From: Candidatus Parcubacteria bacterium
Lineage (GTDB): Bacteria > Patescibacteriota > Minisyncoccia > Minisyncoccales > JAGMDC01
NCBI GenBank assembly: GCA_023131895.1
Contig: JAGLYZ010000003.1
Span: 1,394 to 65,393, forward strand
DNA length: 64,000 bases
Direction of reading: 5' to 3'
In this document: one piece after another, positions 3,154-21,472 of the stretch
Layout: every line of letters starts with the position of its first letter
Position numbering within the stretch: the first letter of the stretch is position 1
Notes under the pieces: generated by a model
What the model was told of the DNA's origin: nothing
Database searches by the model: none
What the model saw: only the letters and a program-made list of their open reading frames with translations
Program-made: the position numbers and the translations under genes

Positions 3154-3159
3154 AAAACT

Positions 3160-3247: not shown

Positions 3248-3248
3248 G

Positions 3249-4376: not shown

Positions 4377-4377
4377 C

Positions 4378-4448: not shown

Positions 4449-4463
4449 CATAATCTTATATCT

Positions 4464-4492: not shown

Positions 4493-4497
4493 GTTGG

Positions 4498-4770
4498 TTA
4501 TTTTACTGCTTCCTTTAAAATTTTTCCTGGTTTAAATTTAGGAACCTTAGCTGCTGGAATTTTAATCTTTTCTTTAGTTTGTGGATTAATACCCATTCTT
4601 TCCTTTCTCTTATTCACTACAAACTTGCCAAAACCAGTTAAGACAACTTCTCCTCCATTAGAAAGCTGCTTGGTAATTTCTTCCAAAACTACTGTTAAAC
4701 TTTCTTCAGCATCTCTTTTTGAAATGCCTACTTTTTTGCTTATTATTTCTGTTAATTCTTTTTTATCCAT
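4498..4770 (-). CDS. hup: HU/IHF-family DNA-binding protein
   Basis: 90 aa: ...GFGKFVVNKRKERMGINPQTKEKIKIPAAKVPKFKPGK..., the classic HU beta-arm. Confidence 0.9.
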   Translation of the reverse strand: MDKKELTEIISKKVGISKRDAEESLTVVLEEITKQLSNGGEVVLTGFGKFVVNKRKERMGINPQTKEKIKIPAAKVPKFKPGKILKEAVK

Positions 4771-4775
4771 AAATT

Positions 4776-6305: not shown

Positions 6306-6392
6306 AATTTAAAATGAGAGATTGGTTATCTAACATAGTAATAAATAAAATGCGATACCAAAAACCATATTATTCTTAATATCTATAAAATC

Positions 6393-6420
6393 ATTATAGC
6401 AAAAACTAATTTTTTGTCAA
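6393..6420 (-). promoter_or_regulatory. sigma70-type promoter upstream of rny
   Basis: The minus strand reads TTGACA-17 nt-TATAAT (TTGACAAAAAATTAGTTTTTGCTATAAT). Confidence 0.6.
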
Positions 6421-6447
6421 AAAAAAAACGAAGGTCGGGCCTTCGTT
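6421..6447 (-). terminator. rho-independent terminator after the 608-aa gene
   Basis: The minus strand reads CGAAGG-CCCGA-CCTTCG followed by a T10 run. Confidence 0.7.
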
Positions 6448-6489
6448 AATTTAGAAATTCAATATCTAAATAAATACTTGCATTGATTT

Positions 6490-8316
6490 TTAATGAGGTG
6501 GAATTTCTTTCCAATCAGGATAAGGAAGTTTTGGTTCAATATCTTTAGAAATAACACAAGGACCAAATCCATCTTTATCAATAATAGAAAGTATTATTTC
6601 ACCAGATGAAAAAAGTTTAACCTTAGGATTTTCAAATGTTTCACTTGTGCCGCCTACAAAGATACCATCACAGTCAGAGATATCCCAAAAAAATGTTCCT
6701 CCTGAGCAGGAAACTTCTTCATTATTTATATCATAGCAAACACTCACATCTAAATCACAAAGCCCTAGTTCCTCAACTGCGCACAATTGAATAGATACAT
6801 CTACTACTGGAGGATCTGGTTCCAAAGTGAAATCAGGCCATGGAGAAGCATGAGCATCAGTAAAGAAAGAAGGACCAGCCTTCCATCCTGAATCAGCTCC
6901 TTTACTATCAAAAACTTTTACCCACCAATAATAAATAGTATTATAGGTAATTTTATCTTCTACAATAGGACTCATAACTATTATTGCTTGACTATTATCA
7001 GAGCCATCAGGATTACTAAGCCCGTCAAAACTTTTATCAACCTCTGGACTTAAATCATTAACATTATTGATATTGTTCACCCGAAAATCAAACCTTGATT
7101 CAGTGTCTCCGTCAGTATCTTTATATGTCCATTTAAAACCAATTAAACCAACGCCTGAACCAATTCCGCAATAGACCTGATATTGAATTGTTTGTGACCC
7201 TAACTCAATATATGGACAATCATTATCACAAGCTCCCCAAACGCAAGAAGAACTGCAGGTTTGTTGACCGCAACCTCCATTACAATCCTTGGTCGCTCCA
7301 GGAGAACAAACGCCTTCGCCAGCGCAGGAACCCCAGATACAATCTACTTGACAGATTTGGCTACCGCAGTCCCCACAACCTTGGTTCGCTCCCGGAGAAC
7401 AAACGCCTTCGCCGGTACAAGAATCCCAAGCGCCCCAAATACCGTTAGCTTGGCAAATTCTATCTTGAGTACCACAATTACCGCAGGATTGAGATTGAGT
7501 AGAACCTGGCGGATGACATTCAACTACTATAAACGATTCCTTAGAAGTTGCTGTATAATTAAAATTATTATCAGTTGCTGTCGCCTGGTATTCAATTAAT
7601 GTTCCTGCTGAATAAGGTCCAATAGTAATGAAATGGGTACCGCCGGTTGGCCATTCATCTACCGGCGAATGGAGCGCGCCATTAACCCAATATTTTATTT
7701 TATGATTTTGAATACCGCAATCATCCCAAGCAGTGGAAGAAAAAGTAATAGTATTAACATCATAGACAGTATTCAATGGACTTCTGGAGAGATTTACACC
7801 ATCAATAATAGCGTCGCAACTAGGCTCGCAGGCGCAATCGCTATCAGCGCAATCTGTTTGTCCGTCGCAATCGTCGTCTATGCTGTTGTGACAGATTTCG
7901 AGGGGGACGCCCACATTGACTGTGTTAGTGGCGCTACCATACCAAGATTCTATCGGAGGATCGTAAGCATCTACTCTTATTTTGGCATCACTCGCCCAAT
8001 CGCAACCTAGGGTGACGGAATAGGAACAGGAGAGAGAATAACCGTCTCCTGAACAGGACATTTTTTGGAAATTCACTTTAGTGGTTCCTGCTGGAGATTC
8101 TATTGTAATGTTAACTTCGTTCGGGTCCGCTGTTCCAAACGCCTGTGTCACTGTTGCCATAATAGTATTGCTTTGATTCTTTGTCATATCACCAGAGGTT
8201 ATTGAAACAACTATGGGAGCCCATGTGGCTAAGGACACATCAGCGCCAATCAAAAACATCCCCAAAAATCCTAAAAGAGTTATTGATAAAATTATTCTGG
8301 TTTTTGTTTTAATCAT
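6490..8316 (-). CDS. secreted cysteine-rich repeat protein (hypothetical)
   Basis: 608 aa with a signal-like N-terminus. It has a DDDCDGQTDCADSDC (MopE-type Cys/Asp) motif and three tandem ~35-aa units C..CG.Q...C...C.WG.C.GEGVCSPGA. Confidence 0.6.
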   Translation of the reverse strand: MIKTKTRIILSITLLGFLGMFLIGADVSLATWAPIVVSITSGDMTKNQSNTIMATVTQAFGTADPNEVNITIESPAGTTKVNFQKMSCSGDGYSLSCSYSVTLGCDWASDAKIRVDAYDPPIESWYGSATNTVNVGVPLEICHNSIDDDCDGQTDCADSDCACEPSCDAIIDGVNLSRSPLNTVYDVNTITFSSTAWDDCGIQNHKIKYWVNGALHSPVDEWPTGGTHFITIGPYSAGTLIEYQATATDNNFNYTATSKESFIVVECHPPGSTQSQSCGNCGTQDRICQANGIWGAWDSCTGEGVCSPGANQGCGDCGSQICQVDCIWGSCAGEGVCSPGATKDCNGGCGQQTCSSSCVWGACDNDCPYIELGSQTIQYQVYCGIGSGVGLIGFKWTYKDTDGDTESRFDFRVNNINNVNDLSPEVDKSFDGLSNPDGSDNSQAIIVMSPIVEDKITYNTIYYWWVKVFDSKGADSGWKAGPSFFTDAHASPWPDFTLEPDPPVVDVSIQLCAVEELGLCDLDVSVCYDINNEEVSCSGGTFFWDISDCDGIFVGGTSETFENPKVKLFSSGEIILSIIDKDGFGPCVISKDIEPKLPYPDWKEIPPH

Positions 8317-8317
8317 A

Positions 8318-8893
8318 TTACTTTTCTCTGATGCTCACCCCGCCTTCGCCGACAGCTATAATCTCAAAAACGTCTTTGAGCGAAGCGCTAAAAACTAAAT
8401 TATAATAATCATCTTTTTTTTCAAAAAGAGGAGTTTGATATCCTTTATCGGTTTTCACTATAAAAGATAAAATTTCACAATCACCTTTGGTAACTACACT
8501 TGTTTTAATTTCTAACTTGCCATTCTCGTATTTTTTCTCCAAGACCTCTGTCCATCCCTTGCATCTCTCCCTTGCTTCTTTTATTTTTTCTTTATCCGGT
8601 TTTGCCTGTTCCTTAACAATTGTTTCGTTCTCTCTGTCTTTAATTAAAATCCCGTATTTATCTCCGCAGTCATAAACACTGCAAGAAAAGAACTCTACTC
8701 CCTCGCAGAGAAAATAATAAGAGCAGTTCTTATCTAAACAGGAATCTGTTAGAAGCTGACAATTTTCAAAAGGAATCGGTTTTTCAACTGGACCAGGAAC
8801 TTGCTGACCAATAAAATAAAAAACTATGAGTAATAAAATTGTAAGAGAGAAGCTAATCCATATTATTAAATTTTTTTTCTTTATTGTTGCCAT
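8318..8893 (-). CDS. membrane-anchored cysteine-rich hypothetical protein
   Basis: 191 aa with an N-terminal TM helix and 8+ Cys. Its stop lies 1 nt before the start of the 608-aa gene (coupled). Confidence 0.55.
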   Translation of the reverse strand: MATIKKKNLIIWISFSLTILLLIVFYFIGQQVPGPVEKPIPFENCQLLTDSCLDKNCSYYFLCEGVEFFSCSVYDCGDKYGILIKDRENETIVKEQAKPDKEKIKEARERCKGWTEVLEKKYENGKLEIKTSVVTKGDCEILSFIVKTDKGYQTPLFEKKDDYYNLVFSASLKDVFEIIAVGEGGVSIREK

Positions 8894-9021
8894 ATTATTA
8901 TTATAAATTATTTTATTATCTTTTTTTATTATATCAAACTATAGAAAATAAAAAAGGTAAACTGTGGATAACTCAAAAACTAAAAATTGGAATTATTATC
9001 TTAATAAGCTATAATAAAATA

Positions 9022-9588
9022 ATGAAATCAGGATTCACTTTAATAGAGCTTTTATTAGTTGTTGCTATTATCTCTATTCTAACTGCTATAGTTACAATAG
9101 ATTATAGAACAGCAGGAAAAAAATTTTCCTTAGAAAGGTCTGCTAATAAATTAGCCCAAGAAATGCGAAAAACGCAGCAAATGACTATGTCAGCTGAACA
9201 AATTGGTTTACCTGGAGCAAAATTTTATCCGGAAGGAGGATATGGAATTCGTTTTGAAGAACCAGACGCTGGATCCCCCTTGGGTCAGGCATTTATTTTC
9301 GCTGATTGCGATAATAACGATCAATTTACACCCGGAAATGACATATGCAATGGCTCATTCTCTGAAAAAATTAAAGATATAGAATTAGAAAAAGACATTA
9401 AGATAAAGTCCCTTTTTCCTGTCTCTAATCTTGATATTACTTTTAAATCACCTGGCCCTACTATTATCTTTTTTTCTGAAAAAGCTGAATCGCTAGTACC
9501 TGAAGCTACAATAACCATTTCTTTTTTAGAAAACGGCAATACCAAAACTGTAAAAATCAACAAAGCTGGTTTAATAGAAGCAGAATAA
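9022..9588 (+). CDS. prepilin-type N-terminal cleavage/methylation protein (pilin/pseudopilin)
   Basis: The internal ATG at 9022 gives MKSGFTLIELLLVVAIISIL.... The upstream 46 codons of the tracked ORF (from 8884) are Tyr/Leu-rich AT-region read-through. Confidence 0.8.
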   Translation: MKSGFTLIELLLVVAIISILTAIVTIDYRTAGKKFSLERSANKLAQEMRKTQQMTMSAEQIGLPGAKFYPEGGYGIRFEEPDAGSPLGQAFIFADCDNNDQFTPGNDICNGSFSEKIKDIELEKDIKIKSLFPVSNLDITFKSPGPTIIFFSEKAESLVPEATITISFLENGNTKTVKINKAGLIEAE

Positions 9589-9607
9589 CAAAAATATAAT
9601 TATCTTT

Positions 9608-10117
9608 ATGAAAAACAAAGGTTTTACTATATTAGAGCTTTTAGTAACTATTTTTATTATTAGCATAGGCATATTAGGAGCTTCCGCGGCTATTAACAAA
9701 ACCATGAGTTTAACATCAAATTATTCCTCTAAACTTATTGCTGTTTCTCTTGCCCAAGAAGGTATTGAAATTGTTAGAAATATAAGAGACGGCAATTTTC
9801 TTGAGCAAAGGGCTTCTCCAGCTACACCTTGGAATGATGGATTTGTTACTCCTGGAGATTATGAAGCTGACTATACAATGGCAGATGGATTAGATAATTG
9901 GACTAACAGATATTTAAAAACCAATAGCAACGGTTTTTATTTTTATAGCGATAATCCTATTTATTCAGAAACTAAGTTTAAAAGAAAAATTACTATTTCG
10001 GAAATAGCCGATATTATAGACCCAAATTCCAGAGCAATCTTAGTTGAAGTATCTTGGCTGGAAAAAGGAGATACTAAAACAATTACTGCCAAAGAATATT
10101 TATGTAACTGGGAATAG
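9608..10117 (+). CDS. prepilin-type N-terminal domain protein (minor pilin)
   Basis: MKNKGFTILELLVTIFIISIGILG... Confidence 0.8.
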   Translation: MKNKGFTILELLVTIFIISIGILGASAAINKTMSLTSNYSSKLIAVSLAQEGIEIVRNIRDGNFLEQRASPATPWNDGFVTPGDYEADYTMADGLDNWTNRYLKTNSNGFYFYSDNPIYSETKFKRKITISEIADIIDPNSRAILVEVSWLEKGDTKTITAKEYLCNWE

Positions 10118-10242
10118 CAAGTCATACTAACATACTAACATTTTAACATTCTAACAAAATTCAATATAAAATGTTTATATGCTTACATGTTAGTACGTTA
10201 ATATGTTTAAATGTTAATATGTTAAAATGCTTAAATGTTAAA
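10118..10242. repeat. TAACAT/ATGTTA heptad palindromic element, copy B (inverted relative to copy A)
   Basis: CATACTAACATACTAACATTTTAACATTCTAACAAAATTCAATATAAAATGTTTATATGCTTACATGTTAGTACGTTAATATGTTTAAATGTTAATATGTTAAAATGCTTAAATGTTAAA. It ends at the ATG of the next pilin gene. Confidence 0.7.
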
Positions 10243-10824
10243 ATGACGAAAAGGGGTTTTACTTTAATGGAAATAATGGTTTCAGTAACTGCTTCTTTTT
10301 TGATTATAGGAGCTATCATCGGACTTTTTATTTCTATAAATCAATCTCAAAAAAGAATATTATCTACTTATGAACTTGTAAACCAAACCGGCTATGCTAT
10401 AGAATATATGAGCCGTGCGTTAAGAACAGGAGAAAAAGAATCAGGACAGGGGTGTCTTGCGTCTTCAGGATTGAATTATGAAATTCCAGTTATATATCAA
10501 ATTGGAGGAAATGAAAATTTAGGAACTGGCTTGAAATTTATAAATCATTTAGAGAATAATGACTGTCAGGAATTTTTTCTTGATGGAAGTCAACTAAAAT
10601 ACAGAAAAGGTATTGGAACCGTGAACGAACAAATATTAGCTTTAACTTCTAATGATCTTCAAATTATTGATTTTAAGTTTAAACTTTCAGGAAAAGACCA
10701 TGAAGACAATATTCAGCCAAGAATAACTATGCTTTTTGTTATTCAAGCTGGTGAAGAAGGGGCAAAAATCAATATTCAGACCACAGTGTCGCAAAGAAAC
10801 ATTGATACATATCAAATATATTAA
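10243..10824 (+). CDS. prepilin-type N-terminal domain protein (minor pilin)
   Basis: The ATG at 10243 gives MTKRGFTLMEIMVSVTASFLIIGAI.... The tracked start at 10171 lies inside the heptad repeat. Confidence 0.8.
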   Translation: MTKRGFTLMEIMVSVTASFLIIGAIIGLFISINQSQKRILSTYELVNQTGYAIEYMSRALRTGEKESGQGCLASSGLNYEIPVIYQIGGNENLGTGLKFINHLENNDCQEFFLDGSQLKYRKGIGTVNEQILALTSNDLQIIDFKFKLSGKDHEDNIQPRITMLFVIQAGEEGAKINIQTTVSQRNIDTYQIY

Positions 10825-10825
10825 A

Positions 10826-11206
10826 ATGGCAATCCAAAAATCAGAAAAAGGCGTTATTTTTTATTTAGCTTTAATAATACTGACTATTTCAATGGCTATT
10901 GTTTTAGGATTGAGTCCAATTTTAATAGGACAAATTAAAACAATCCAGCAAATGGAAAATTCAATGAAAGCATTTTTTGCGGCTGATACAGGGATAGAAA
11001 TAGCTCTTTATGACAAAAGCGAACCTGAATCAAGTTATTCAGGTTCTTTAAATGGCGCAACATACGAAGTAACAGTTGTCTGCAATGAGCTTTATTTAGA
11101 CTGCCCTTTTGGAATATGGGATAGTGACTGCAACGGTCATTTCTTTTGCTATGAGTCAATTGGCAGTTACAGAGAAATTAAAAGGGCAATTGAAATTATA
11201 AGATAA
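10826..11206 (+). CDS. PilX-like pilus-associated membrane-anchored protein (hypothetical)
   Basis: The ATG at 10826 gives MAIQKSEKGVIFYLALIILTISMAIVLG.... It is the last gene of the pilin cluster and begins 2 nt after the previous stop. Confidence 0.5.
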   Translation: MAIQKSEKGVIFYLALIILTISMAIVLGLSPILIGQIKTIQQMENSMKAFFAADTGIEIALYDKSEPESSYSGSLNGATYEVTVVCNELYLDCPFGIWDSDCNGHFFCYESIGSYREIKRAIEIIR

Positions 11207-11224
11207 AAAAAACAGACAATTTTT

Positions 11225-11812
11225 TTATGCTTTTTTAAAAATCACCTGGTCAATGATGCCGTATTCCTTTGCGTCCTGGGCTGATAAATAAAAATCTCTG
11301 TCAGTATCCTTTTCAATTCTGCTCAATGGCTGGTTTGTATGTTTAGCTAAAATTTTATTTAGCTTTTCTTTTATTTTAATAATCTGTTTTGCGGTAATTT
11401 CAATTTCTACTGCCGCCCCGCTTATGCCTCCACCGGCAACCTGATGAAGTAAAATTTCAGAATTAGGCAGGGCAAATCTTTTCCCTTTAGCGCCAGCGGC
11501 TAAAAGAATAGCGCCCATTGAAGCAGCTATGCCGATGCAAACCGTGGAAATAGGCGACTTAACATACTGCATTGTATCATAAATTGCCAAGCCGGAAGTT
11601 ACTACTCCGCCAGGAGTGTTGATATAAAGCTGGATATCTTTTTTCGGCTCCTGCGAAGCCAAAAAAAGCATCTGGGCAATAACTGAATTAGCCACTGAAT
11701 CAGTAATCGGTCCTGCTAAAAAAATAATTCTCTCTTTTAATAATCTAGAATAAATATCAAATGCCCGCTCTCCATATTTAGTTTTCTCAATGACAGTTGG
11801 AATCAAATTCAT
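11225..11812 (-). CDS. clpP: ATP-dependent Clp protease proteolytic subunit
   Basis: 195 aa: ...[22 protein letters not shown]...[14 protein letters not shown]...LLHQ... Confidence 0.9.
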
Positions 11813-11827
11813 AGTATTTAAATTTTA

Positions 11828-13042
11828 CTATTTAGATTTATTAGATGTTTTTTTCTCTTTTGTCTTTTTCTCTTTTTTTTCTTCCTTGTCCGCCGTAGTC
11901 CCGCGTGGCGGGACGGGTTTTCCTTCTTCCGGGCTTCTAACATCTATTTTCCAGCCAGTTAATTTGGCTGCTAAACGGACATTTTGGCCATTTTTGCCAA
12001 TAGCTAAAGAAAGCTGATCTTCCGGCACCAAAACCAATGCCTTGTTTTTCGGCATAATCTTAACCTCTAAAACTTTGGCTGGAGACAAAGAATTCGCAAT
12101 ATATTTTTCAGGGGCATCAGAATATTCAATAATATCAATCTTTTCTCCGCCTAATTCATTAATCACTGCTGTAACCCTTGTTCCTCTTTGGCCAACCATA
12201 GCGCCAATAGGATCCATGCCTTCTGCGTCAGAACTAACAGCAATTTTTGAACGGGACCCAGCTTCTCTTGCAATTGACTTTATGAAAACCTGATCAGTTG
12301 AAATCTCTGGCACCTCCAACTCAAAAAGTTTTGAAACCATTTTGGGATAAGCCCTGGACAAAATAATCTGCGGTCCTTTAGGCGTGAGCTCCACATTTAA
12401 AACATAAAGCCGAAACCTCTGGTTAAGACGGTAAAATTCCCCTAAAATCTGCTCCTCTCTTGGCAAAATGCCAACTGTCTTGCCAATATCAAAGAAAACT
12501 GCTCTTTGCTCAATTCTCTGGACTAATCCAGAAATTATTTCTCCTATTTTTGATTCAAACTCCTGAAGAATTGACTCTCTTTCTACTTCTTTAATCTTTT
12601 GTAAAATTACCTGCTTGGCTGTCTGCGCCGCAATTCGGCCATAATCATCCTGTGTTTCTAAAGATAGCTCTAATTCATCCCCAACTTTTATCTTCGGCTC
12701 TATCTTTTTCGCTTCTTCAAATATAATATGCTTTTCTGGATTAAAACGGATTTTTTCCTCCTTGTCCGCCGAAGCTTCAGCAGAGGCGGATTCCTTTAAC
12801 TCCTCCAGTTCATCTTCAGAATAAATCATATCCTCTGAAACAACCATCTTTATCTGCCAAAATTTTACACTCCCTGTTTTTGGAGAAAGCTTAGCTTTAA
12901 TAATCTGCCCTTTTTTACCATAATCCTTTTTATAGGCAGCAGCCAATGCCTGCTCAATAACCTCAATCACTTTTTCTTGAGGGATGCCTTTTTCTTCAGC
13001 AATCTGTGTTACAGCTGATGTAAATGATTTAATTTCAAACAT
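11828..13042 (-). CDS. nusA: transcription termination/antitermination factor NusA
   Basis: 404 aa with N-terminal, S1 and two KH regions (...GMDPIGAMVGQRGTRV...AIGKNGQNVRLAAKLTGWKIDV...) and a Lys/Glu tail. Confidence 0.9.
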   Translation of the reverse strand: MFEIKSFTSAVTQIAEEKGIPQEKVIEVIEQALAAAYKKDYGKKGQIIKAKLSPKTGSVKFWQIKMVVSEDMIYSEDELEELKESASAEASADKEEKIRFNPEKHIIFEEAKKIEPKIKVGDELELSLETQDDYGRIAAQTAKQVILQKIKEVERESILQEFESKIGEIISGLVQRIEQRAVFFDIGKTVGILPREEQILGEFYRLNQRFRLYVLNVELTPKGPQIILSRAYPKMVSKLFELEVPEISTDQVFIKSIAREAGSRSKIAVSSDAEGMDPIGAMVGQRGTRVTAVINELGGEKIDIIEYSDAPEKYIANSLSPAKVLEVKIMPKNKALVLVPEDQLSLAIGKNGQNVRLAAKLTGWKIDVRSPEEGKPVPPRGTTADKEEKKEKKTKEKKTSNKSK

Positions 13043-13120
13043 AAAAAATTTTTAGAAAAGTCCGTTGAAAAGAACGGACTGTTTTTATAATAGCAAATCT
13101 AATAACTTTGTCAACTATTT

Positions 13121-13474
13121 GGTGGTGTTTGTTGGACGAAATCCGAACTTTCTTTGAGCAAAATCCAGAGGATTTTGCGGATTGAATCCCGCCCAGCGTT
13201 TCCGCCCGCCTTTGCTTCGCTACGGCGAGCAAAACAGAAAAATTTTCTAAACATTTTTTAATCGCCTGCCCCAAATTTTTTTCAATTAAGGAAAAGAAAA
13301 TTTTTCTGTTTTGATATTCTACTAACGCAGAATTGCGGAAACGCTTTCCCACCCCATAGTCCCGCTTTGCGGGACTGGCAAGCTGGCAAAAATTCATTTT
13401 CCCTACACCCCTTTTTCTTTTTGCCCGCCTGTTCTTTGACTCTGTCCTGAAAATTTTTTTGGCTGGCGTCGGGG
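13121..13474. repeat. structured ~350-bp repeat, copy X1 (body 13121-13377, 41-bp palindromic core 13385-13425, tail to 13474)
   Basis: The body is about 80% identical to the reverse complement of 21064-21314. 13378-13474 is 100% identical to the reverse complement of 14865-14961. Confidence 0.85.
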
Positions 13475-13501
13475 ATATATTAAGAGAGAGCAAACATAAG
13501 G

Positions 13502-13993
13502 TTACAAACCCAGCCGTTCAATCATATCTTTTTTCAGATTTATTGCAAAATTTCTCGCATCTTCTAAATCTTTTTTATTAGGTCTGCCTTTGTTTAGTCC
13601 ACCAGTAAATTTCAAAAATGGAATGTATCTATCAAAAAGATATGTATCAAACCCTCTACAAGAAAACTTCCCTACAATATCAAACCCCTTTTCTAACAAT
13701 TTTTTAAAAAGTGGCCGATGATAAAACCATACAGGACCTATACCTCTTGTTGAAAAAATAAATGCCTTTTTGTTTTTCATTATAGGTAGATTATCAACAA
13801 GAGCAAGTAATGCTTTATGCTGTTTAAAAAAATAAATTCCTGAGCCAAACCCAATGAGGTCGTATTTGGAAAGAGTATTCACCTCAATCTTATTGGGTCT
13901 CAATAATTCTGCATTAAAGATTTTAGCCATTTCTTTAGCAATTTTTTCTGTATTACCATTATGTATTGATATGTAAATAATTAGAGTTTTCAT
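13502..13993 (-). CDS. flavodoxin-like fold protein
   Basis: 163 aa: MKTLIIYISIHNGNTEKIAKEMA...IGFGSGIYFFK... Confidence 0.6.
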   Translation of the reverse strand: MKTLIIYISIHNGNTEKIAKEMAKIFNAELLRPNKIEVNTLSKYDLIGFGSGIYFFKQHKALLALVDNLPIMKNKKAFIFSTRGIGPVWFYHRPLFKKLLEKGFDIVGKFSCRGFDTYLFDRYIPFLKFTGGLNKGRPNKKDLEDARNFAINLKKDMIERLGL

Positions 13994-14451
13994 ATTAACA
14001 TTTCTAGATTTTTAAACTCCTCTTTTGCGTGTTTTTCAAGCGCCTCTTCAAATGCTTTTGTAAGATAAAATTTTTTCAAAAGCAAATCGATTATTTTACC
14101 GAATAATCCTTTGTATCCAACCTCTATTTTATGAATTACTTTCGCGCCTGTGTTCGTAGATTCGAAAGCTAACGAAAAATAACCAGAAATAAGCGATTTC
14201 CATTTATAAAGCAAAAATCTATTTGGTTCAACCTTTACAAGTTTTCCAGTAAGTTTTAATCTGAAGTGGTTAAATTGTTCATCTAAATAGACAATACTTC
14301 CCATTTCATTGGGTGTTCGTTTAATAGTCTTCCATGCTTTATGGGCGGGGTGCCACTTCTTATATTTCTCATCATCCAAATCGAGAATCCAGTTATATAT
14401 CTGTTCTGGAGTTTTGCCTTTTATCTCAATTTTCGTAATTATAATAATCAT
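13990..14451 (-). CDS. SRPBCC/START-like hypothetical protein
   Basis: 153 aa. Composition and length fit the SRPBCC fold. ATGA overlap with the flavodoxin-like gene. Confidence 0.4.
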   Translation of the reverse strand: MIIIITKIEIKGKTPEQIYNWILDLDDEKYKKWHPAHKAWKTIKRTPNEMGSIVYLDEQFNHFRLKLTGKLVKVEPNRFLLYKWKSLISGYFSLAFESTNTGAKVIHKIEVGYKGLFGKIIDLLLKKFYLTKAFEEALEKHAKEEFKNLEMLI

Positions 14452-14520
14452 ATTATCTCTCCCTCATAAGTTTATAGATTTTTTTATTTATTAGATTTTT
14501 CTAAAGCGAGGTTAGGAATT

Positions 14521-14733
14521 TCATTTTATTAAATCGCCAATATCAACCTTTAATGCTTTAGCGATTTTCGTTAAAGTTTCAATAGTGGGATTTGGATTTT
14601 CACCAGATTCAATTTTTACAATAGTATTATAAGCGACATCAGCAAACTTAGAAAGCTTATCTTGAGAAATCTCAAGTTTCTTTCTATAATGCTTGATATT
14701 TTTCGCTATTGTGGATAATCTTCTTGTTGACAT
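14521..14733 (-). CDS. XRE-family helix-turn-helix transcriptional regulator
   Basis: 70 aa: ...IKHYRKKLEISQDKLSKFADVAYNTIVKIESGENPNPTIETLTKIAKALKV... Confidence 0.85.
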   Translation of the reverse strand: MSTRRLSTIAKNIKHYRKKLEISQDKLSKFADVAYNTIVKIESGENPNPTIETLTKIAKALKVDIGDLIK

Positions 14734-14864
14734 TTGACTAATAATTTAATACTATTATAGTAGATGTTAGATATTAGATATAGTATATTTTTTCTCATTA
14801 ACTAATATAATGATACTAAATTATTTTAGTAATGTAAAGCAGCAAATTTATCTTTTTCGATTTG

Positions 14865-14999
14865 CCCCGACGCCAGCCAAAAAAATTTTCAGGACAGAGT
14901 CAAAGAACAGGCGGGCAAAAAGAAAAAGGGGTGTAGGGAAAATGAATTTTTGCCAGCTTGCTTATTCACTCTCTGATTTAGAATTTTATTGCTCCTGAT
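14865..14999. repeat. partial repeat copy X3 (tail + core 14914-14954 + 38-bp S1 arm 14962-14999)
   Basis: 14865-14961 is the exact reverse complement of 13378-13474. 14962-14999 matches the reverse complement of 20977-21014 at 35/38. Confidence 0.85.
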
Positions 15000-15005
15000 T
15001 TTTCT

Positions 15006-15087
15006 CTATAACGAATCGAGGATAAAAGAAATTCTGCGAGGCAGAATTTGGACGGAGCAAAGCGGAGTCTTTTATCCTCTGTTATCG
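15006..15087 (-). other. attC-like folded palindrome 4
   Basis: The minus strand reads CGATAAC-A-GAGGATAAAAGA-(38 nt)-TCTTTTATCCTC-GATTC-GTTATAG. Confidence 0.55.
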
Positions 15088-15170
15088 GAGTCTTGGCAAG
15101 CTGAGACCGAGCCACGAAGTGGCGAAGAGTTGCGGGGCTTTAATTTTTGTCATTAAAAGTTTTTTTCTCT

Positions 15171-16298
15171 TCACTCAGTTGTAGGATATAAAAGTCTTTC
15201 CCCTGATGCGACTCTCTTTACTAAATCTAAATTAACAAGTCTACAAAGGTCTTCTACTTTAGATTTAGCTGAATAGAAACCTAATGGATGATTTTCCATT
15301 GGAGGTATCCAAGAATCCTTATAGATAGTAACCCTAAGTTGTTCTATTTCTTGAATTTCATCATTATTGAGTTCATGATCAAAATATAAGAAAAGTTTCA
15401 TTTCGTCTGTGATATTTTTTTGCATGGCTTGCATTACAACTAGACTTTCAAATTTTTTGCTGTCTCTAATATCTTCTAGGTCACATTCAATTATAGATGG
15501 TTTTGCCTTGCATCCACATTGTTTACTGTTTTCCTCTGTAATTAAATCTGAATTTGAAATCCATGGACAGGGTTCTGATTCGTTTTTGGCTATTGCTTTA
15601 CAATACTCTTCACAGTTAATTTCTCTTTTTACCGTGCATTTGTTATCAACGCAAATAGGTGTGAATTTCTCTAAATTTAGGCAGTGAGAACATTGTGGTG
15701 GTGAGTAATAAGGGCAAGTTGGCGGGCACTTTGCTTTCATCTCCTGTTCGATTTTTTCTTTACTCTCTTTATTCACAACATTTGGTGATTCTCTTTTACA
15801 TGGGTCTGGAGGTGGACAACATCTAATAAAATCCAAAAATACACAATCTGAATCTTTTTCACAATATTTTTCATTATCTATGACTTTTGTCTTTTGGCTA
15901 CAACAATCAAAATAACATGTCCAGTCATATCCAAAAACAAAATTGCCTGATTTCCTTTCTTTTACAGAAGAAGCTTTAATAAATTTACAATCGCGATCAA
16001 TAAGATTAATATTTTTATATCTTTGCCATTCATCATACCAAACAGAGTCTTTTCCAATCTCCTTAGAGCACATCACTTGGATAAAATCCTTTAATCTATT
16101 TTCACACAATCTTTTTTGTTCTTCTGCGTTGGCTGGAGGACCTGCCTCATCGCCGGCACCCATTTCAAAGTAAATATTACTACAATCTACCTTTACCTGT
16201 TGAGTTGGTTGACTGCTCCAAAGCCACAATCCACCAACTACAACAATTCCAATTACTAAACAAACTATTCCAATTTTAATTTTCTTTTCCATAGTCAT
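15171..16298 (-). CDS. membrane-anchored cysteine-rich hypothetical protein (cassette ORF)
   Basis: 375 aa with about 30 Cys. N-terminal anchor ...VVVGGLWLWSSQPTQQV. Confidence 0.55.
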   Translation of the reverse strand: MTMEKKIKIGIVCLVIGIVVVGGLWLWSSQPTQQVKVDCSNIYFEMGAGDEAGPPANAEEQKRLCENRLKDFIQVMCSKEIGKDSVWYDEWQRYKNINLIDRDCKFIKASSVKERKSGNFVFGYDWTCYFDCCSQKTKVIDNEKYCEKDSDCVFLDFIRCCPPPDPCKRESPNVVNKESKEKIEQEMKAKCPPTCPYYSPPQCSHCLNLEKFTPICVDNKCTVKREINCEEYCKAIAKNESEPCPWISNSDLITEENSKQCGCKAKPSIIECDLEDIRDSKKFESLVVMQAMQKNITDEMKLFLYFDHELNNDEIQEIEQLRVTIYKDSWIPPMENHPLGFYSAKSKVEDLCRLVNLDLVKRVASGERLLYPTTE

Positions 16299-16348
16299 AA
16301 TTTAATTGTATTAAAGTTAATAAATATTTTCAAAAGCCTCGCCATTTC

Positions 16349-16426
16349 CGATAACGTATCCCAGATATACGAAGTCCCGAAGGGATTTGAGCGTAACGAA
16401 GTGAAGCCGTATATCTGGTGTTAGAT
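16349..16426 (-). other. attC-like folded palindrome 3
   Basis: The minus strand reads ATCTAAC-A-CCAGATATACG-(36 nt)-CGTATATCTGG-GATAC-GTTATCG. The TAA inside ATCTAAC is the stop codon of the upstream ORF. Confidence 0.55.
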
Positions 16427-17173
16427 GTTGTAAATTTTTAGGGATTTTGCGAATCTTCTCTCCCTGTACAACAACATACCGGCATAGATAACGCTTACAT
16501 TTAAAACAATTTGGGAAACTATTTCTATAAAAATTATCAATGGATTAAATCCAAAGAATATGACATAGTCAATCGTTCCATCTAATAAACCATATACTGG
16601 TGGTACCAAAAGAAATGTCTCAAGCCACATATAGATAAACGGTATCATAGCAATGCTAAATAATGTTGCTCGTCCTAACCAGTTGTTTTTTATATCAAAA
16701 TGTAATGCTAACAATATGTTCAGCAGCATAAAAATAACGGGTATCCGAATTGAAGTTAATATAAAAACGAATTCTTCTAATCCCATCAGGTCCCCTAAAA
16801 TATATGAGCCAAACCACAGTGTAAAGGCGGGGAATAATCCGGGATGCTCTAATGCCATTTCAGGTGTCAATGAAGATGTACTTAAAGCGTCTATAGCCCC
16901 CCATGATGTTAAAATCACAAAAAACCAGATTGGAACCCCAATCAGACCACGATATAAGTCCCACTTATACAATTTTTTAAGATTACCTTCTGGTGGTTTA
17001 CTCATTAACATACTGATAAACAGAATTGTAAAGCCAGCAACAATAAATACCATTCCTAATGCGCCAATACCCGCTTGATCTTCTGTAATTTGCGGCTTTG
17101 ACATTGTATCCAAAACCATGAATATACCAATAATTCCTAAAATCAAACCAATTGCAAATATGATTTTTTTCAT
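16421..17173 (-). CDS. polytopic membrane protein (hypothetical, cassette ORF)
   Basis: 250 aa with about 7 hydrophobic helices. Confidence 0.55.
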   Translation of the reverse strand: MKKIIFAIGLILGIIGIFMVLDTMSKPQITEDQAGIGALGMVFIVAGFTILFISMLMSKPPEGNLKKLYKWDLYRGLIGVPIWFFVILTSWGAIDALSTSSLTPEMALEHPGLFPAFTLWFGSYILGDLMGLEEFVFILTSIRIPVIFMLLNILLALHFDIKNNWLGRATLFSIAMIPFIYMWLETFLLVPPVYGLLDGTIDYVIFFGFNPLIIFIEIVSQIVLNVSVIYAGMLLYRERRFAKSLKIYNI

Positions 17174-17244
17174 AATTAATCCTATTGAAAATCTTTATTA
17201 ATAAAACTTTTCCCGAGCAAAATCCCGTTAAGAAAATTTATTGC

Positions 17245-17345
17245 ATCTAACATCTGGGATATACGAAGTTTTTCTGGAACGAAGTGGAAGAAAAATTTGG
17301 GTGAGGGGCGAGCCGAGCCCCGAACCGTATATCCTCTTGTTGTAC
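17245..17345 (-). other. attC-like folded palindrome 2
   Basis: The minus strand reads GTACAAC-AAG-AGGATATACG-(60 nt)-CGTATATCCC-AGAT-GTTAGAT. Confidence 0.5.
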
Positions 17346-17522
17346 GCCCCGACGACTGAAGGGAGGAGAGCGCAGCGTGGCTTGAGTTCAAAAAATATTT
17401 TTCGTTCTTATCCATCAAATAGGCTTTCGTTTATTTCTTATAAATTTGATTTTTTCCTATTTTAAAAATGGAAGAGGGGTTAGGGGTGAATTTCATTTTT
17501 TATGGTCAACCATATCATTATA

Positions 17523-18344
17523 TTATTGATGTTTATCAAGATTAACAACTTCAAACTTTGGATAATGAACTACAAATTGCGGAACACTAACATTTGAGTC
17601 CAATAATATTTTTTTTGTCTTATCAATAAATTCATTAAACTGCGTTTCATCCACCAGTATTTGATAATTTCTCAGGTAGTTTTCTCTAAGTATCTTTTTA
17701 AATTCTCCACCAGCGGCTTTTAAATTCATCATTTCAACAATGTAGTAATCTGCAAAATTTTTTGTTTTTGAAATCAATAATTTGATATTGATTAATTCAG
17801 GAATTACTGGGGATATAAAACAAAAAGTTTTAATCCTATTATTTTTTAGAGTTTTCAACGCCTTTATTCTTTCTTCATTACTGGGAGAATGCGGTTCAAA
17901 TAAATCTTTTGTATTTCCTTCAAAAGTATTAATTGTCAAACCGACTTCTATTTTTTTGAATTGTTTTAATAAATCAATGTCCCTTGTTATTAAATCTGAT
18001 TTTGTTAATATTGAAAGTTCTGTGCGTTTGTCCATGCTTTGCAAAATACGGCGTGTCAACTGCAATTCTTTTTCTGCTGGCTGATAAGGGTCGGAGACAG
18101 AAGACATAATGACTTTTCCATTAACAATTTTTTTTGCGAGTTCAGGAGCATTGATTTTCGCTTCTACCCAATCACCCCATTTCCCGTGATTTTTCCACCG
18201 GCACATAAATTTTGCGTAGCAATAAGTACAAGCATATTCACAGCCAATATATTGGTTTATTACATACTTTGCACTAGGAGTTTTCGTTTTTGTAAATATA
18301 CTCTTTGCATTAATTTTAATTATTTTGGCAGTCATAGTAATCAC
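17523..18344 (-). CDS. radical SAM protein, SplB/DNA-photolyase-like (COG1533-type)
   Basis: 273 aa with a CxxxCxxC cluster motif GCEYACTYCYAKF near the N-terminus. Confidence 0.7.
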   Translation of the reverse strand: MITMTAKIIKINAKSIFTKTKTPSAKYVINQYIGCEYACTYCYAKFMCRWKNHGKWGDWVEAKINAPELAKKIVNGKVIMSSVSDPYQPAEKELQLTRRILQSMDKRTELSILTKSDLITRDIDLLKQFKKIEVGLTINTFEGNTKDLFEPHSPSNEERIKALKTLKNNRIKTFCFISPVIPELINIKLLISKTKNFADYYIVEMMNLKAAGGEFKKILRENYLRNYQILVDETQFNEFIDKTKKILLDSNVSVPQFVVHYPKFEVVNLDKHQ

Positions 18345-18850
18345 TTAGAAGCACTTGCCTTACAGAGAGATCTCATTTTGCATTGAGAGCATCCTTTCTT
18401 TCTTCCGAATTGGTTTATTATCATAATCACAATAAAACCCAATAGAGAGATTCCACCAGAAATTAAAAATTCTCTATTCAAAAATATAGCAATTGGAATA
18501 ACAATAATTGGAATGAGTGTTAATAATCCCCAAGTCATGCCTGCTAATTTCATTCCGAGTTTGTAATCTCCTGATTTTTGTTTAAACTGGCATGAACTTA
18601 ATTTGCTCCAGCCACTTCCGCATAATTTACCATAATAATAGCAATGTGTGCAAAGATGTTTTCTTAGGACAATTCCCAACATTACTAATGCAAATGACAA
18701 ATAGAGTATGGAAATAATAGGGAATCCTGCAAATTTAAATGCCGACATTCCGTACGCCGCTAATCCAAACCATAATAACAACAGCGTGTTGGTTAAAATT
18801 ACTGATGATTTTGGATAATTCTCCAATCCTTTTTCGTATAGTTTTTCCAT
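18341..18850 (-). CDS. membrane protein with CxxC motifs (hypothetical)
   Basis: 169 aa with 4 TM segments, plus CTHCYYYGKLCGSGW and GCSQCKMRSLC. It overlaps the radical SAM start by 4 nt. Confidence 0.5.
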   Translation of the reverse strand: MEKLYEKGLENYPKSSVILTNTLLLLWFGLAAYGMSAFKFAGFPIISILYLSFALVMLGIVLRKHLCTHCYYYGKLCGSGWSKLSSCQFKQKSGDYKLGMKLAGMTWGLLTLIPIIVIPIAIFLNREFLISGGISLLGFIVIMIINQFGRKKGCSQCKMRSLCKASASK

Positions 18851-18852
18851 AA

Positions 18853-19182
18853 TTACTTTTCTCCAAAGCGACCAATAAAATAACCCATCAAACTTCCGAT
18901 AATAAGATTTGTAACCAGCATTGGAACTAGTTCTTGGGGACTGCCAGCAACTACTACAATCATCATTGGAAAGGCTATTAAAAAGAAAATTAGCGTTCCT
19001 TTTAAAGTATTATTCAATTTTAGGTTTGATGTTGATATGAGAAAACCGCCGATAACACACATCAAAAATGCTGATACTAATGTGTCCCAAGTCATTTTCA
19101 TAAGCATCATAGGGATTATATCAACTATACCAAAAATAATACCAATGATAAGTCCTACTTTTGTTTTGCTCATTTTTTCCAT
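18853..19182 (-). CDS. small membrane protein (hypothetical)
   Basis: 109 aa with 3-4 TM segments. Its stop lies 2 nt before the next start. Confidence 0.5.
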   Translation of the reverse strand: MEKMSKTKVGLIIGIIFGIVDIIPMMLMKMTWDTLVSAFLMCVIGGFLISTSNLKLNNTLKGTLIFFLIAFPMMIVVVAGSPQELVPMLVTNLIIGSLMGYFIGRFGEK

Positions 19183-19381
19183 AATCTTTACCTCTTTATT
19201 AAATATAAATATCGTTATTATATAAGTTTTGTTTTTCTTTTCAATTTATAAGTTGTTTTCGTAACGGAGTGGAGAAAACACAAATTATCCCCCTCTTTTG
19301 TTTCAGAAAAAATCAAATTTATTTCCCTTTTTAGAAAGCCCGTCATTCTTTTGTCTTTTAGAAAAATATTTTTTGAATTGC

Positions 19382-19472
19382 GTATAACATATAGTGCTAA
19401 AAGAAGTTGTTGCGTAGCAACAATTTGGATGGAACGACCGCAGGGAGTGAAATCTTTTAGCACTTGTTAAGT
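19382..19472 (-). other. attC-like folded palindrome 1
   Basis: The minus strand reads ACTTAAC-A-AGTGCTAAAAG-(50 nt)-CTTTTAGCACT-ATAT-GTTATAC. The plus strand ends in GTTAAGT (fits GTTRRRY). Confidence 0.55.
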
Positions 19473-19501
19473 GAAGTATGACGCAGCCGCCGAGTTAAAA
19501 T

Positions 19502-19945
19502 CTATTTCATCTTCTCGAGTTCCATTATGTTGTTAGGAGGTGTGGTAGCTTCATGAACTGTTATTTTACCTGTGAAGTCCACAAATACGTATCTGCATGG
19601 GTGTGCCCAGTTGGCCCATGGAGCGTCATCAACGAAGAAGAACCAACCCTCCTTCTGTGGGAGTTCAATTGAACTGTGCCAACTTTCTATGGTTGTGCCA
19701 GCTTTCACTGGTTTGGGACCTACATATACCCATTTCCCTTCGGTACTTCCATTCAAAAGCTCTGATATGACCAGATTGTAAGCATCCGTCTTGGATATGT
19801 TTTTATCTGCTTCAAATTCTTTCCATTCCTCAACTTGATCTAGTTGTTGACTATTCCAAATCCACAATCCTCCAACTAAAACAATTACCATAATCAAAAT
19901 TCCAATAAAGATTTTTGTTTTTGAATTCATAATAGTTTTCCTCAT
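19502..19945 (-). CDS. membrane-anchored/exported hypothetical protein (first cassette ORF)
   Basis: 147 aa. The N-terminal anchor ...VLVGGLWIWNSQQLDQV is shared with the 375-aa ORF. Confidence 0.55.
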   Translation of the reverse strand: MRKTIMNSKTKIFIGILIMVIVLVGGLWIWNSQQLDQVEEWKEFEADKNISKTDAYNLVISELLNGSTEGKWVYVGPKPVKAGTTIESWHSSIELPQKEGWFFFVDDAPWANWAHPCRYVFVDFTGKITVHEATTPPNNIMELEKMK

Positions 19946-20010
19946 AATTTTATTGTTAGACTTATTTATTAATCTTATGAGTTTATATGCTCGGCGGCGA
20001 GTAATATTTC

Positions 20011-20086
20011 ATTTAACTCGTTTCTATACGAATTGAATGTATAATATCGACCTTTTGTTGCATATTATACGAACTTAATGTATAAT
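20011..20086. promoter_or_regulatory. attI-like region: GTTAAAT core plus two 21-bp direct repeats
   Basis: Minus-strand GTTAAAT at 20017-20011. TATACGAATTGAATGTATAAT (20025-20045) and TATACGAACTTAATGTATAAT (20066-20086) match 18/21, and each has inverted TATAC/GTATA ends. Confidence 0.45.
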
Positions 20087-20146
20087 TATTAATGAAATTA
20101 CTAATAATTACTTAACTAACTTTAGTTTACTAATTTTTATAAAATT

Positions 20147-20962
20147 ATGCAACAAAAATATTTGGAACAAACAAGGCGGGAATTAAAATTAAGAAATTAT
20201 AGTTTCAAAACCATAAAGGCCTATCTCGGTTGTTTAAAAGAATATTTTGATTTTAAAAAATTTAATTTAGAAAAAATAGACGAGGAAAATATAAAGCAGT
20301 TTTTATTAAATAAACAAGACAAAAATTATTCTTCACAAACGATAAATCTTTACTTAAATGCAATAAAATTTTTTTACCGCGAAGTATTGAAAATTCCCGA
20401 AAAGATAAATTTGAAATTCGCCAAGCGAAGTAAAAAACTACCGATTGTTCTATCAAGAGAAGAAATTGAAAACATCATTGAGTCAATCAAAAATCCAAAG
20501 CATAAATTAATAATCTCTTTAGCTTATGGCGCCGGCTTGAGAATCAGTGAAGTTATTAGTCTAAAAGTAAAAGATGTCGATTTAGAAGAATTAACTATCC
20601 ATCTTAAAAACGCCAAAGGCAAAAAGGACAGAATCACTATTTTCCCGGAAAAAATTAGAAGAGATATTCAAGGTTTAATAGCCAGAAAAAATTCGGACGA
20701 TTATCTTTTTGAAAGCGAACGGGGCGGAAAATTAACCGAGCGGACAGCCCAAAAAGTTTTTGAAAACGCACTCCGAGGAACGGGTATAAAAAAAGACGCT
20801 ACATTCCATTCGTTAAGACACAGCTTTGCAACACATTTATTAGAAAATGGTGTTGATGTCAGGTATGTGCAGGAACTTTTAGGGCATCAGAATATCAGAA
20901 CAACTCAAATTTATACTCAGGTAACAAATCCAAAACTCAAAAACATTAAAAGTCCGTTATGA
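20147..20962 (+). CDS. tyrosine site-specific recombinase (IntI/Xer-like, lacks the IntI-specific insertion)
   Basis: 271 aa: ...YSFKTIKAYLGCLKEYF..., KKLPIVLSREEI, LAYGAGLRISEVISLKVKDVDL, KGKKDR, HSLRHSFATHLLENGVDVRYVQELLGHQNIRTTQIYTQV...IKSPL. The R..K..HxxR..H..Y catalytic pattern is present. Confidence 0.9.
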   Translation: MQQKYLEQTRRELKLRNYSFKTIKAYLGCLKEYFDFKKFNLEKIDEENIKQFLLNKQDKNYSSQTINLYLNAIKFFYREVLKIPEKINLKFAKRSKKLPIVLSREEIENIIESIKNPKHKLIISLAYGAGLRISEVISLKVKDVDLEELTIHLKNAKGKKDRITIFPEKIRRDIQGLIARKNSDDYLFESERGGKLTERTAQKVFENALRGTGIKKDATFHSLRHSFATHLLENGVDVRYVQELLGHQNIRTTQIYTQVTNPKLKNIKSPL

Positions 20963-20976
20963 TTAAAACGGGAAAA

Positions 20977-21314
20977 ATCAGAAGCAATAAAACTCTAAAT
21001 CAGAAAGTGAATAAGCTTAGTAAGCAAAAAGAAAAAGGGATGTGGGGGAAATGAATTTTTGCCCGCCTGCTGTCCCTCAAAACGGGACTGGGGTTGGGAG
21101 CGTTTCCGCAATTCTGCGTTAGCAGAATATCAAAACAGAAAAATTTTCTTTTCCTTAATTGAAAAAAATTTTGCGAGGGGCTATTAAAAAAATGTAGAGA
21201 AAATTTTTCTGTTTTGCTCGCCGTCAGGCGAGTGAAAACGCTGGGTCGGGGTTCAAAAATCCGCTTGCGGATTTTTCTCAAAATGAGTTCGGATTTCGTC
21301 CAGCAAACACCACC
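20977..21314. repeat. structured repeat copy X2 (S1 arm 20977-21014, core 21023-21063, inverted body 21064-21314)
   Basis: Reverse-complement match to the X1 body. The S1 arm and core are shared with X3. Confidence 0.85.
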
Positions 21315-21398
21315 ACTTCGCTTTTTGTAATTATAGATTAATGTTTATTATGCTCGTGTTTGCACCACGTAGCTCCGAGGCGTAACCGAGGAGCGAAG

Positions 21399-21472
21399 TG
21401 GTGGACCCAGCGAGAGTCGAACTCGCGACATCGCAATGCCATTGCGATATTTTACCACTAAACTATGGGCCC
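21399..21472 (-). tRNA. tRNA-Ala (anticodon GGC), CCA encoded
   Basis: Acceptor GGGCCCA/TGGGTCC with the G3:U70 identity pair, anticodon arm TCGCA-ATGGCAT-TGCGA, T loop TTCGACT, then ACCA. Confidence 0.85.

Follow-up and report, generated by a model that had tools for sequence, protein, structure and literature searches.

A 64-kb stretch of DNA from a Candidatus Parcubacteria bacterium (contig JAGLYZ010000003.1; hereafter the window, meaning the whole stretch analysed) carries, between nusA and a tRNA-Ala gene, a perfect 97-nucleotide (nt) inverted repeat that encloses a small operon. Our analysis gives good support to the view that the two arms of this repeat are end-pieces of a cassette from a widespread and apparently undescribed family of mobile elements of Candidate Phyla Radiation (CPR) bacteria, or Patescibacteria, which is linked to large serine recombinases (LSRs), and that the window holds a decayed, recombinase-less copy of such an element. 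From left to right, the locus consists of nusA, a boundary unit that ends in the first arm (unit A, arm A), a first cassette of three genes, the second arm (arm B, an inverted tail Y' and core), a tail X, a second cassette of six small genes and a tyrosine recombinase, a tail X', a second boundary unit (unit C) and tRNA-Ala (Table 1). Little is known of the mobile genetic elements of CPR bacteria, the genomes of which are tiny.

Table 1 Features of the locus between nusA and tRNA-Ala, in window coordinates.
Feature	Position	Strand	Description
nusA	11828-13042	-	
Boundary unit A	13120-13474	+	~355 nt; LSR remnant, structured spacer, core and tail Y
LSR remnant of unit A	13120-13185	+	last 21 codons and stop; WWCLLDEIRTFFEQNPEDFAD
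Arm A	13378-13474	+	7-nt outer half-arm, 41-nt core, inner half-arm and ~42-nt T-rich tail Y
41-nt core, copy A	13385-13425	+	1 mismatch to family consensus
Flavodoxin_5 gene	13502-13993	-	flavodoxin-like cargo gene; domain match
SRPBCC gene	13990-14451	-	Polyketide_cyc2-like cargo gene; domain match
HTH_3 gene	14521-14733	-	70 aa, XRE-type, controller-protein-like; conserved first gene of family cassettes
Promoter-like site of HTH operon	14810-14838	-	TTTACA-17-TATCAT; inside the segment, outside the arms
Arm B	14865-14961	-	exact reverse complement of arm A; core and tail only, upstream unit absent
41-nt core, copy B	14914-14954	-	same single mismatch as copy A
Tail X	14960-15004	+	45 nt, outer side of arm B; 93% complementary to X'
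Cassette 2	15005-20971		six small genes and tyrosine recombinase
Tyrosine recombinase gene	20147-20962	+	271 aa, XerA/integron-integrase type; belongs to cassette 2
Boundary unit C	20972-21315	-	inverted relative to A; LSR remnant, spacer, core and tail X' (20972-21016)
41-nt core, copy C	21023-21063	-	3 mismatches
LSR remnant of unit C	21315-21253	-	last 20 codons and stop; WWCLLDEIRTHFEKNPQADF
tRNA-Ala	21399-21472		

The arms are 100% complementary over their 97 nt and lie 1390 nt apart; they are non-coding and form the longest inverted repeat of the whole window. The perfect repeat described in an initial annotation of this DNA was thus borne out, both by the repeat search and by strain-level assemblies with the same structure, and the shared sequence quoted there agrees with the letters of the window. 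Each arm contains a 41-nt core that reads GGCAAAAA..TTTTTGCC (full string in each arm, GGCAAAAATTCATTTTCCCTACACCCCTTTTTCTTTTTGCC; family core, GGCAAAAATTCATTTTCCCCACACCCCTTTTTCTTTTTGCC), for which the number of matches expected by chance is zero (100 shuffles). The same annotation had called the core palindromic; a 41-nt core is present in each arm, but its palindromy is limited to the outer 8 nt (15 nt with flanks), and a pyrimidine tract without symmetry takes up the central 25 nt.

The inverted repeat is real and not an assembly artefact. A collapsed or mis-joined repeat would be suggested by a fourth assembly in which the interior forms a stand-alone contig of 1383 nt that ends exactly at the arm edges (L003) and by a Logan contig that ends 30 nt into arm B. 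Such breaks are expected, because short k-mers break at a 97-nt repeat, and we regard an artefact as exceedingly improbable: a 44.6-kb scaffold from another sample (L125) has 100% identity to the window across 13 kb, and a 4.9-kb scaffold from a third sample (L002), which represents a distinct strain with 4 single-nucleotide polymorphisms in 12900-15013, reads through both arms, which are identical to each other and in the same orientation as in the window. The same architecture is also found in more than 100 unrelated contigs.

Arm A is the end of a larger unit, of which unit C is an inverted copy (83-95% identical; 83% between 13120-13424 and 21024-21315). Aligned over their full length to a reference unit from a related contig (L057, described below), units A and C are 84% and 81% identical, respectively, and both retain the consensus base pairs. 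Arm B does not have the upstream part of this ~345-nt unit, as is the case for many distal copies in the family, and its alignment to the reference begins only at position 940. Tails X and X' are, by virtue of their complementarity, the inverted ends of the neighbouring cassette 2. Adjoining repeat parts of only about 80% identity had been noted previously; these exist, but they relate A to the third copy, C, and not to arm B. Two other interpretations of the unit were rejected. The open reading frames that cover it (13035-13493 and 21000-21281) read the repeat in opposite directions, and indels of 1, 2 and 5 nt separate the copies, so that the unit is not protein-coding; nor does ARAGORN find a tRNA or transfer-messenger RNA at its 5' end, despite the likeness of this end to a reverse-complemented tRNA 3' end.

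Relatives of the locus were found with a 33-nt degenerate pattern of the core, which matched 18 stretches in GTDB species genomes and at least 100 in JGI metagenomes; the matches in GTDB genome contigs included no locus from the source contig or assembly. Most of the GTDB stretches are labelled Patescibacteria, Saccharibacteria, Falkowbacteria or Minisyncoccales, and a few are labelled Bacillota or Omnitrophota, labels that may be binning errors. Neither the core pattern nor the unit had a match in IMG/VR, PLSDB plasmids or INPHARED phages, and we found no description of the repeat or of the element family in the literature, including searches with the core sequence as text.

The family recurs in 118 contigs as defence cassettes bracketed by inverted copies of an invariant site. 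Its cargo is mostly restriction-modification (R-M) methylases and nucleases and AAA_15/AbiEii-type ATPases. The cores are convergent and inverted in 17 of the 20 two-core loci, where they bracket 2-8 kb. Perfect inverted repeats around family cores are typically 65-141 nt in length and reach 12-71 nt into the cargo side; extension on the outer side is just a few nucleotides, unless both copies are full units. The division of the window arms into 7, 33 and 57 nt (7 nt on the outer side and 57 nt on the cargo side) is typical of the family. Many combinations of spacer and tail meet at the core borders, at which similarity between copies stops (breakpoint histogram), a pattern that selection and recombination could each produce.

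In the closest relative, a metagenome-assembled genome of the Minisyncoccales with ~88% nucleotide identity (L014), nusA is followed by core-X, two cargo genes that differ from those of the window, the tyrosine recombinase found here (93% amino acid identity), unit C and tRNA-Ala; cassette 1 is missing, and there is hardly any spacer next to nusA. In related contigs, the same cargo (94-98% identity) occurs in opposite orientations relative to the LSR and on different backbones (L027 and L034 versus L067). Two other contigs (L042 and L124) have palindromic ends and were treated as possible mis-joins. Many cassettes of the family have a GGGTGGNGGGTGGG-like G-rich box just inside one tail (L015, L017, L024 and L034) and a complement-type C-rich box, GTCGCCCTTGYCCCAC, inside the other tail (L012, L016, L023 and L032), in each case 30-60 nt beyond the tails; on one strand, these boxes constitute a direct repeat nested within the inverted tails. 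The window cassette is without them.

The presence of a helix-turn-helix (HTH)-SRPBCC-flavodoxin operon between the arms, which had been proposed previously, was confirmed, with all three genes on the - strand. Arm B lies downstream of a 375-amino-acid gene and upstream of the HTH gene, the ATG of which (14733) is 181 nt from core B and in the same direction. This gene has 44 homologues (43-66% identity) in 40 loci; their start is 189-243 nt past a core in 37 of 116 instances, and is found at exactly one end in 14 of 17 core pairs. As it recurs at a set distance from the cores, the HTH gene belongs to the vehicle. The SRPBCC-flavodoxin pair occurs at 84% nucleotide identity in four other contigs (L130-L133) without HTH gene, core or arms and is, to judge from this distribution, captured cargo. 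A PADLOC defence search of the cargo gave a weak match to the HTH protein alone and none for the SRPBCC, flavodoxin or cassette-2 proteins. The only good promoter-like site for the operon is at 14838-14810. Between this site and the HTH start codon, an indel polymorphism affects the 7 nt at 14771-14777, where ATATTAG, a single unit of a short TAGATAT tandem repeat, is missing from L003, a contig of another sample.

Arms A and B share two private substitutions (C>T at core position 20 and G>T in the flank) that occur in none of the other 61 distinct sites. The arms have therefore been homogenised or copied within this lineage, which indicates concerted evolution. The initial annotation had gone further, taking the perfect identity to imply recent or ongoing exchange and the segment to be a candidate for inversion. 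Recombination is indeed the biology that matters here, and exchange or duplication is upheld by the two private substitutions, but ongoing inversion is not: the window, L125 and L002 all have the same orientation, with the evidence consisting of contigs only, among which L003 and L126 break at the arms.

Spelled out as a model, that proposal would make the HTH-SRPBCC-flavodoxin operon a phase-variation switch flipped by the recombinase 5 kb away. A perfect inverted repeat around a small operon, close to a tyrosine recombinase of the Xer/integron-integrase/invertase superfamily, is what such a switch would look like. We nonetheless consider it very improbable, and the segment is not a promoter-type on/off inverton. 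The promoter-like site and all three genes lie wholly within the segment between the arms, so that flipping would not disconnect the operon from its promoter; a single orientation is seen in all arm-spanning assemblies; and 97-nt arms far exceed typical invertase sites. Moreover, the arms are the 3' part of a ~345-nt unit that brackets cassettes in more than 100 contigs, and are therefore a family trait and not a local switch. The locus is similar to classical invertons and shufflons (Hin/Gin/Cin, FimB/E, Rci and type I hsdS) in that inverted repeats flank a segment and a site-specific recombinase is part of the system. It differs from them in that their sites are 10-30 bp in length and are accompanied by an adjacent invertase and by promoter or coding rewiring; the window shows none of these features.

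The tyrosine recombinase nearby, the position of which had been pointed out previously, is not the enzyme of the 97-nt repeat. It accompanies the repeat in 1 of 118 related loci, the sister genome L014, and sits in cassette 2 with candidate sites of its own; the enzyme that travels with the repeat is the LSR. The tyrosine recombinase reaches 241.7 bits against NF040815 (cut-off, 220) and 226 bits against the integron integrase model TIGR02249 (cut-off, 265). Cassette 2 itself looks integron-like: the recombinase is divergent from six small - strand genes, which are separated by imperfect palindromes of 60-90 nt (15018-15029/15068-15079, 16344-16371/16408-16435 and 19393-19404/19453-19464), and two TATACGAAyTkAATGTATAAT direct repeats lie just upstream of the recombinase (about 20025-20045 and 20066-20086). 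The gene content of 15086-20004 is entirely unlike that of L014, which has an analogous palindrome after X (1207-1275). Both the array of small, promoter-poor genes beside a tyrosine recombinase and the structured boundary sites, with covarying stems and short conserved sequence as in attC, resemble integrons. However, attC sites are direct and IntI has an extra domain, whereas here the arms are inverted and linked to a serine recombinase, and the 271-amino-acid enzyme falls below the integron-integrase cut-off.

In loci that have an LSR, the core lies ~180 nt downstream of the LSR gene. The LSRs beside the units are ~520 amino acids in length and contain Resolvase, Recombinase and Zn_ribbon_recom domains; their best NCBIfam matches are XisF and CcrB, with weak matches to CcrA and CcrC, all below the curated cut-offs. 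The start of the family unit falls within the final ~21-24 codons of the LSR coding sequence. The LSR of L057 has the C terminus ..IWWCLLDDVRTFFEQNPEDFAD, which matches window positions 13111-13182 (83% over 24 amino acids, E 2e-9) and 21315-21256. Around 25 copies, including A and C, have their left boundary at TGGTGGTG. This boundary is preceded either by LSR coding sequence (..CTAATTCAATA joined to TGGTGGTG) or by AT-rich DNA of no relation, with variation in the first 2-3 nt. In L017 (around 7073-7160), the 3' end of a tRNA is fused to the other half (..CTCCACCA joined to TAACGAATTTG). The recurrent junction and the tRNA fusion together place the putative crossover inside the LSR's own 3' coding end, which suggests that the attachment site is within the recombinase gene and that integration splits the gene. 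We infer that A and C are two element ends that face each other and have lost their recombinase. The junction motif itself, (T/A)NGTGGTG, is sharp and recurrent inside the LSR 3' end (window 13120 and 21315).

The reference contig (L057; ERZ795060 NODE_4345, 1-12034) is circularly permuted, with 1-3955 identical to 8027-11981 at 100%, which implies a circle or tandem of 8,026 bp. It holds an LSR, an R-M cassette headed by an HTH gene and a perfect inverted repeat of 448 bp. In this respect it is like the 2-micron FLP/FRT system and the beta recombinase of pSM19035, as the inverted repeat separates the recombinase from the cargo segment and both isomers occur in assemblies. Unlike in those plasmids, no replication gene was identified in L057 and the isomers may be assembler choices, and the window copy is chromosomal and has no recombinase.

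The sites of the family are conserved in an uneven manner. Across 63 distinct sites, there is next to no variation in the central 41 nt, whereas the 7 nt on each side vary in complementary fashion (GCAAGCG/CGCTTGC, GCAGGCG/CGCCTGC, GCAGACG/CGTCTGC, GGGCGGC/GCCGCCC and TTTAGTA/TACTAA). In these dyad arms, 93.7% of positions are paired and 7 of 15 pairs show compensatory changes; none of 500 shuffles was as good, and slid controls reached 42-58%. The core is identical even among LSRs that are only 43-50% identical, and the arm types follow the LSR clades. An RNAalifold analysis of 16 diverse full units gave nine helices with 73 pairs, of which 21 are compensatory, although the structure was derived from the same alignment that was used for covariation and many changes come from one subfamily; again, 0 of 500 shuffles was as good, and slid alignments gave 1-8 compensatory pairs. 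Among the helices are a long-range one of 10 bp (GCGTTTCCGC/GCGGAAACGC), one of 17 bp for which a subfamily has different complementary sequences instead, and a hairpin, capped by a UUCG-type loop, with 6 of 7 pairs covarying. The forward strand of the unit is rich in G-U pairs, and most family tails are a hairpin followed by a T-run that points into the cassette. Covariation thus supports a secondary structure for the whole ~345-nt unit, with the provision that independent covariation events are few, because most compensatory changes come from one subfamily.

These features raise the possibility that the unit is a structured RNA (the 3' end or 3' untranslated region of the LSR mRNA, or a non-coding RNA) or a folded single-stranded DNA (ssDNA) signal, such as a single-strand origin, with the arms as its 3' domain. 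Each arm would then consist of a terminator and of a hairpin whose pyrimidine loop of 25 nt is invariant, and the inverted repeat would be a by-product of a single-strand function, the inverted copy serving the other strand or end by insulating the cassette from outside transcription or by priming the strand that is taken up. Besides the compensatory pairs and the replaced long-range helices, the forward-strand G-U pairs, UUCG-type loops and canonical tails are in keeping with this, as are the invariance of the loop across divergent LSRs and the fact that both tails of each pair face into the cassette. We see it as a credible explanation but not the expected one. A search of Rfam with 13120-13474, 14865-15004 and 20972-21315 gave no match at the gathering score or at E<=1; an invariant loop is not required for termination; the covarying dyad arms can also reflect binding of a dimeric protein; and arm types track LSR clades.

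A different possibility is that the core is a true site-specific recombination site of the family LSR and that the segment is still mobile or invertible today. The enzyme, supplied in trans by another element in the cell, would invert the segment between A and B, or excise or exchange cassettes between cores, in a natural form of recombinase-mediated cassette exchange. A dyad-symmetric site of ~55 bp has the size of an LSR attachment (att) site and adjoins an LSR gene; hybrid half-arms, as recombinant sites would show, are seen in A and B, in C and in L014; different spacers and tails are joined at the core borders; and cargo occurs in either orientation and on more than one backbone, with a cassette content that differs between the window and L014. 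However, the central 25 nt are asymmetric, a clear integration junction is found elsewhere, at TGGTGGTG, the LSR is absent from the window, all assemblies have one orientation and 41 nt of identity could support homologous exchange as well. On balance, we think it rather unlikely that the core acts in this way at present.

The arms could also be read as the terminal inverted repeats of a transposon, or as those of an element resembling a miniature inverted-repeat transposable element, which we consider highly unlikely. Cassettes that are bounded by inverted core-and-tail repeats without the upstream unit or a nearby LSR do exist (for example, on the 113-kb contig L045), and there is a general precedent: R-M and other genes between long inverted repeats appear to be mobile units, some of them without a linked mobility gene (PMC2853133). 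Those systems are heterogeneous single cases with imperfect inverted repeats of 60-65 nt and, sometimes, target duplications (PMC2853133), whereas here one conserved site family occurs in more than 100 contigs and is linked to an LSR and a conserved HTH gene. The window has no target-site duplication (13371-13377 versus 14962-14968; ..GGGACTG and TTATTCA.. directly outside the arms), no transposase recurs among the 847 open reading frames of the loci, and the arms are parts of a larger, LSR-linked unit.

The best explanation of the locus is, in our judgement, that arms A and B duplicate, in inverted orientation, the 3' module of the conserved ~345-nt unit in a decayed, LSR-linked cassette, and we hold this to be probable. 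The module comprises a dyad-symmetric site of ~55 bp with an invariant 41-bp centre, together with a T-rich tail of ~42 bp, and in the family a convergent pair of modules brackets cargo cassettes led by a small XRE-type HTH gene. The cores may be where cassettes become attached to backbones, are inverted on them or are exchanged between them, and the tail may act as an inward-facing terminator or insulator. Identity of the arms would be maintained by gene conversion and/or occasional inversion, through RecA or through an LSR acting in trans.

Several observations weigh against this explanation or parts of it. The outer half-arms of A and B (GCAAGCT/CGCCTGT) are a hybrid that pairs at just 4 of 7 positions, and because of this mismatch the fold of a single window arm is not superior to that of shuffles (z = 0.69). 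A simple terminator scan does not call tail Y, which is a degenerate version of the hairpin with a T-run. By tblastn, the 64-kb window contains no LSR body, only C-terminal remnants. Integration appears, from the junctions described above, to cross over at the TGGTGGTG boundary and not at the core, and the core may be a recombination site, an RNA or ssDNA hairpin, or both. The recombination that we propose to keep the arms identical, by gene conversion and/or occasional inversion, is put forward on the basis of their sequence identity. Finally, although L050 and L057 are opposite isomers, the 448-nt perfect inverted repeat makes the assembler path arbitrary, and the difference was therefore not counted as evidence.

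As a more tentative proposal, which we rate as possible but not favoured, the unit might represent a new class of recombinase-associated structured nucleic acid, either RNA from the LSR 3' end or folded ssDNA, with its invariant 25-nt pyrimidine loop and covarying stems needed for mobility throughout this family of CPR elements. The inverted 3' domain around every cassette would allow the LSR to flip defence cassettes or swap them from one backbone to another, in a natural cassette-exchange system, and the window arms would be a docking pair that is still recognisable. If so, the inverted domain might also serve whichever strand naturally competent cells take up.

Among known systems, the family is most readily compared with elements that shuffle accessory genes between repeated sites. 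As in the staphylococcal cassette chromosome (SCC), which uses the LSRs CcrAB and CcrC, accessory or defence cassettes are delimited by repeated attachment-type sites, and SCC cassettes likewise occur in arrays, many without a recombinase of their own and relying on one in trans. By contrast, SCC sites are short direct repeats at rlmH, whereas those described here are inverted, convergent modules of 55-97 nt within a ~345-nt unit that overlaps the LSR 3' end; the match to CcrB is 91 bits (cut-off, 900), the flanking genes are nusA and tRNA-Ala, and the hosts are Patescibacteria. The pdif modules of Acinetobacter plasmids are similar in that small gene modules between inverted, recombination-type sites are shuffled among backbones. 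The pdif sites are 28-bp Xer sites used by host tyrosine recombinases; those of the present family are larger, have an invariant 41-nt centre and travel with a serine recombinase.

What the window itself conveys is modest, a relic boundary pair and no demonstrated phase switch, and the family holds more interest than the local repeat does. Should the core prove to be a recombination site, the family would provide a compact natural serine-recombinase system that flips or exchanges multi-kilobase cassettes, which genome engineering could find of interest. Should the unit prove to be an RNA, serine recombinases would have an associated structured RNA of a type not described for them.

Elsewhere in the window, 42197-43201 contains at least six head-to-tail copies of a 141-nt (47-codon) repeat that are 84-90% identical, in the GC-richest part of the window (0.46-0.48). 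Blocks with an 8-nt period (TTAACATN or its complement GTTAATAN) occur at 3152-3255, 10119-10247 and 27290-27355 and are mutually inverted; the block at 10119-10247 is directly upstream of a gene, the protein of which has a type-IV-pilin-like N terminus. A T-box leader on the - strand (25311-25561; 93.2 bits, gathering score 93) is located upstream of hisS (23913-25169), with a tRNA-His gene on either side of the leader (25176-25250 and 25625-25697). Several collinear direct repeats of 70-245 nt (73-85% identity) connect 46635-47364 with 52634-53815, ~6.3 kb apart, and suggest a duplicated gene or gene pair.

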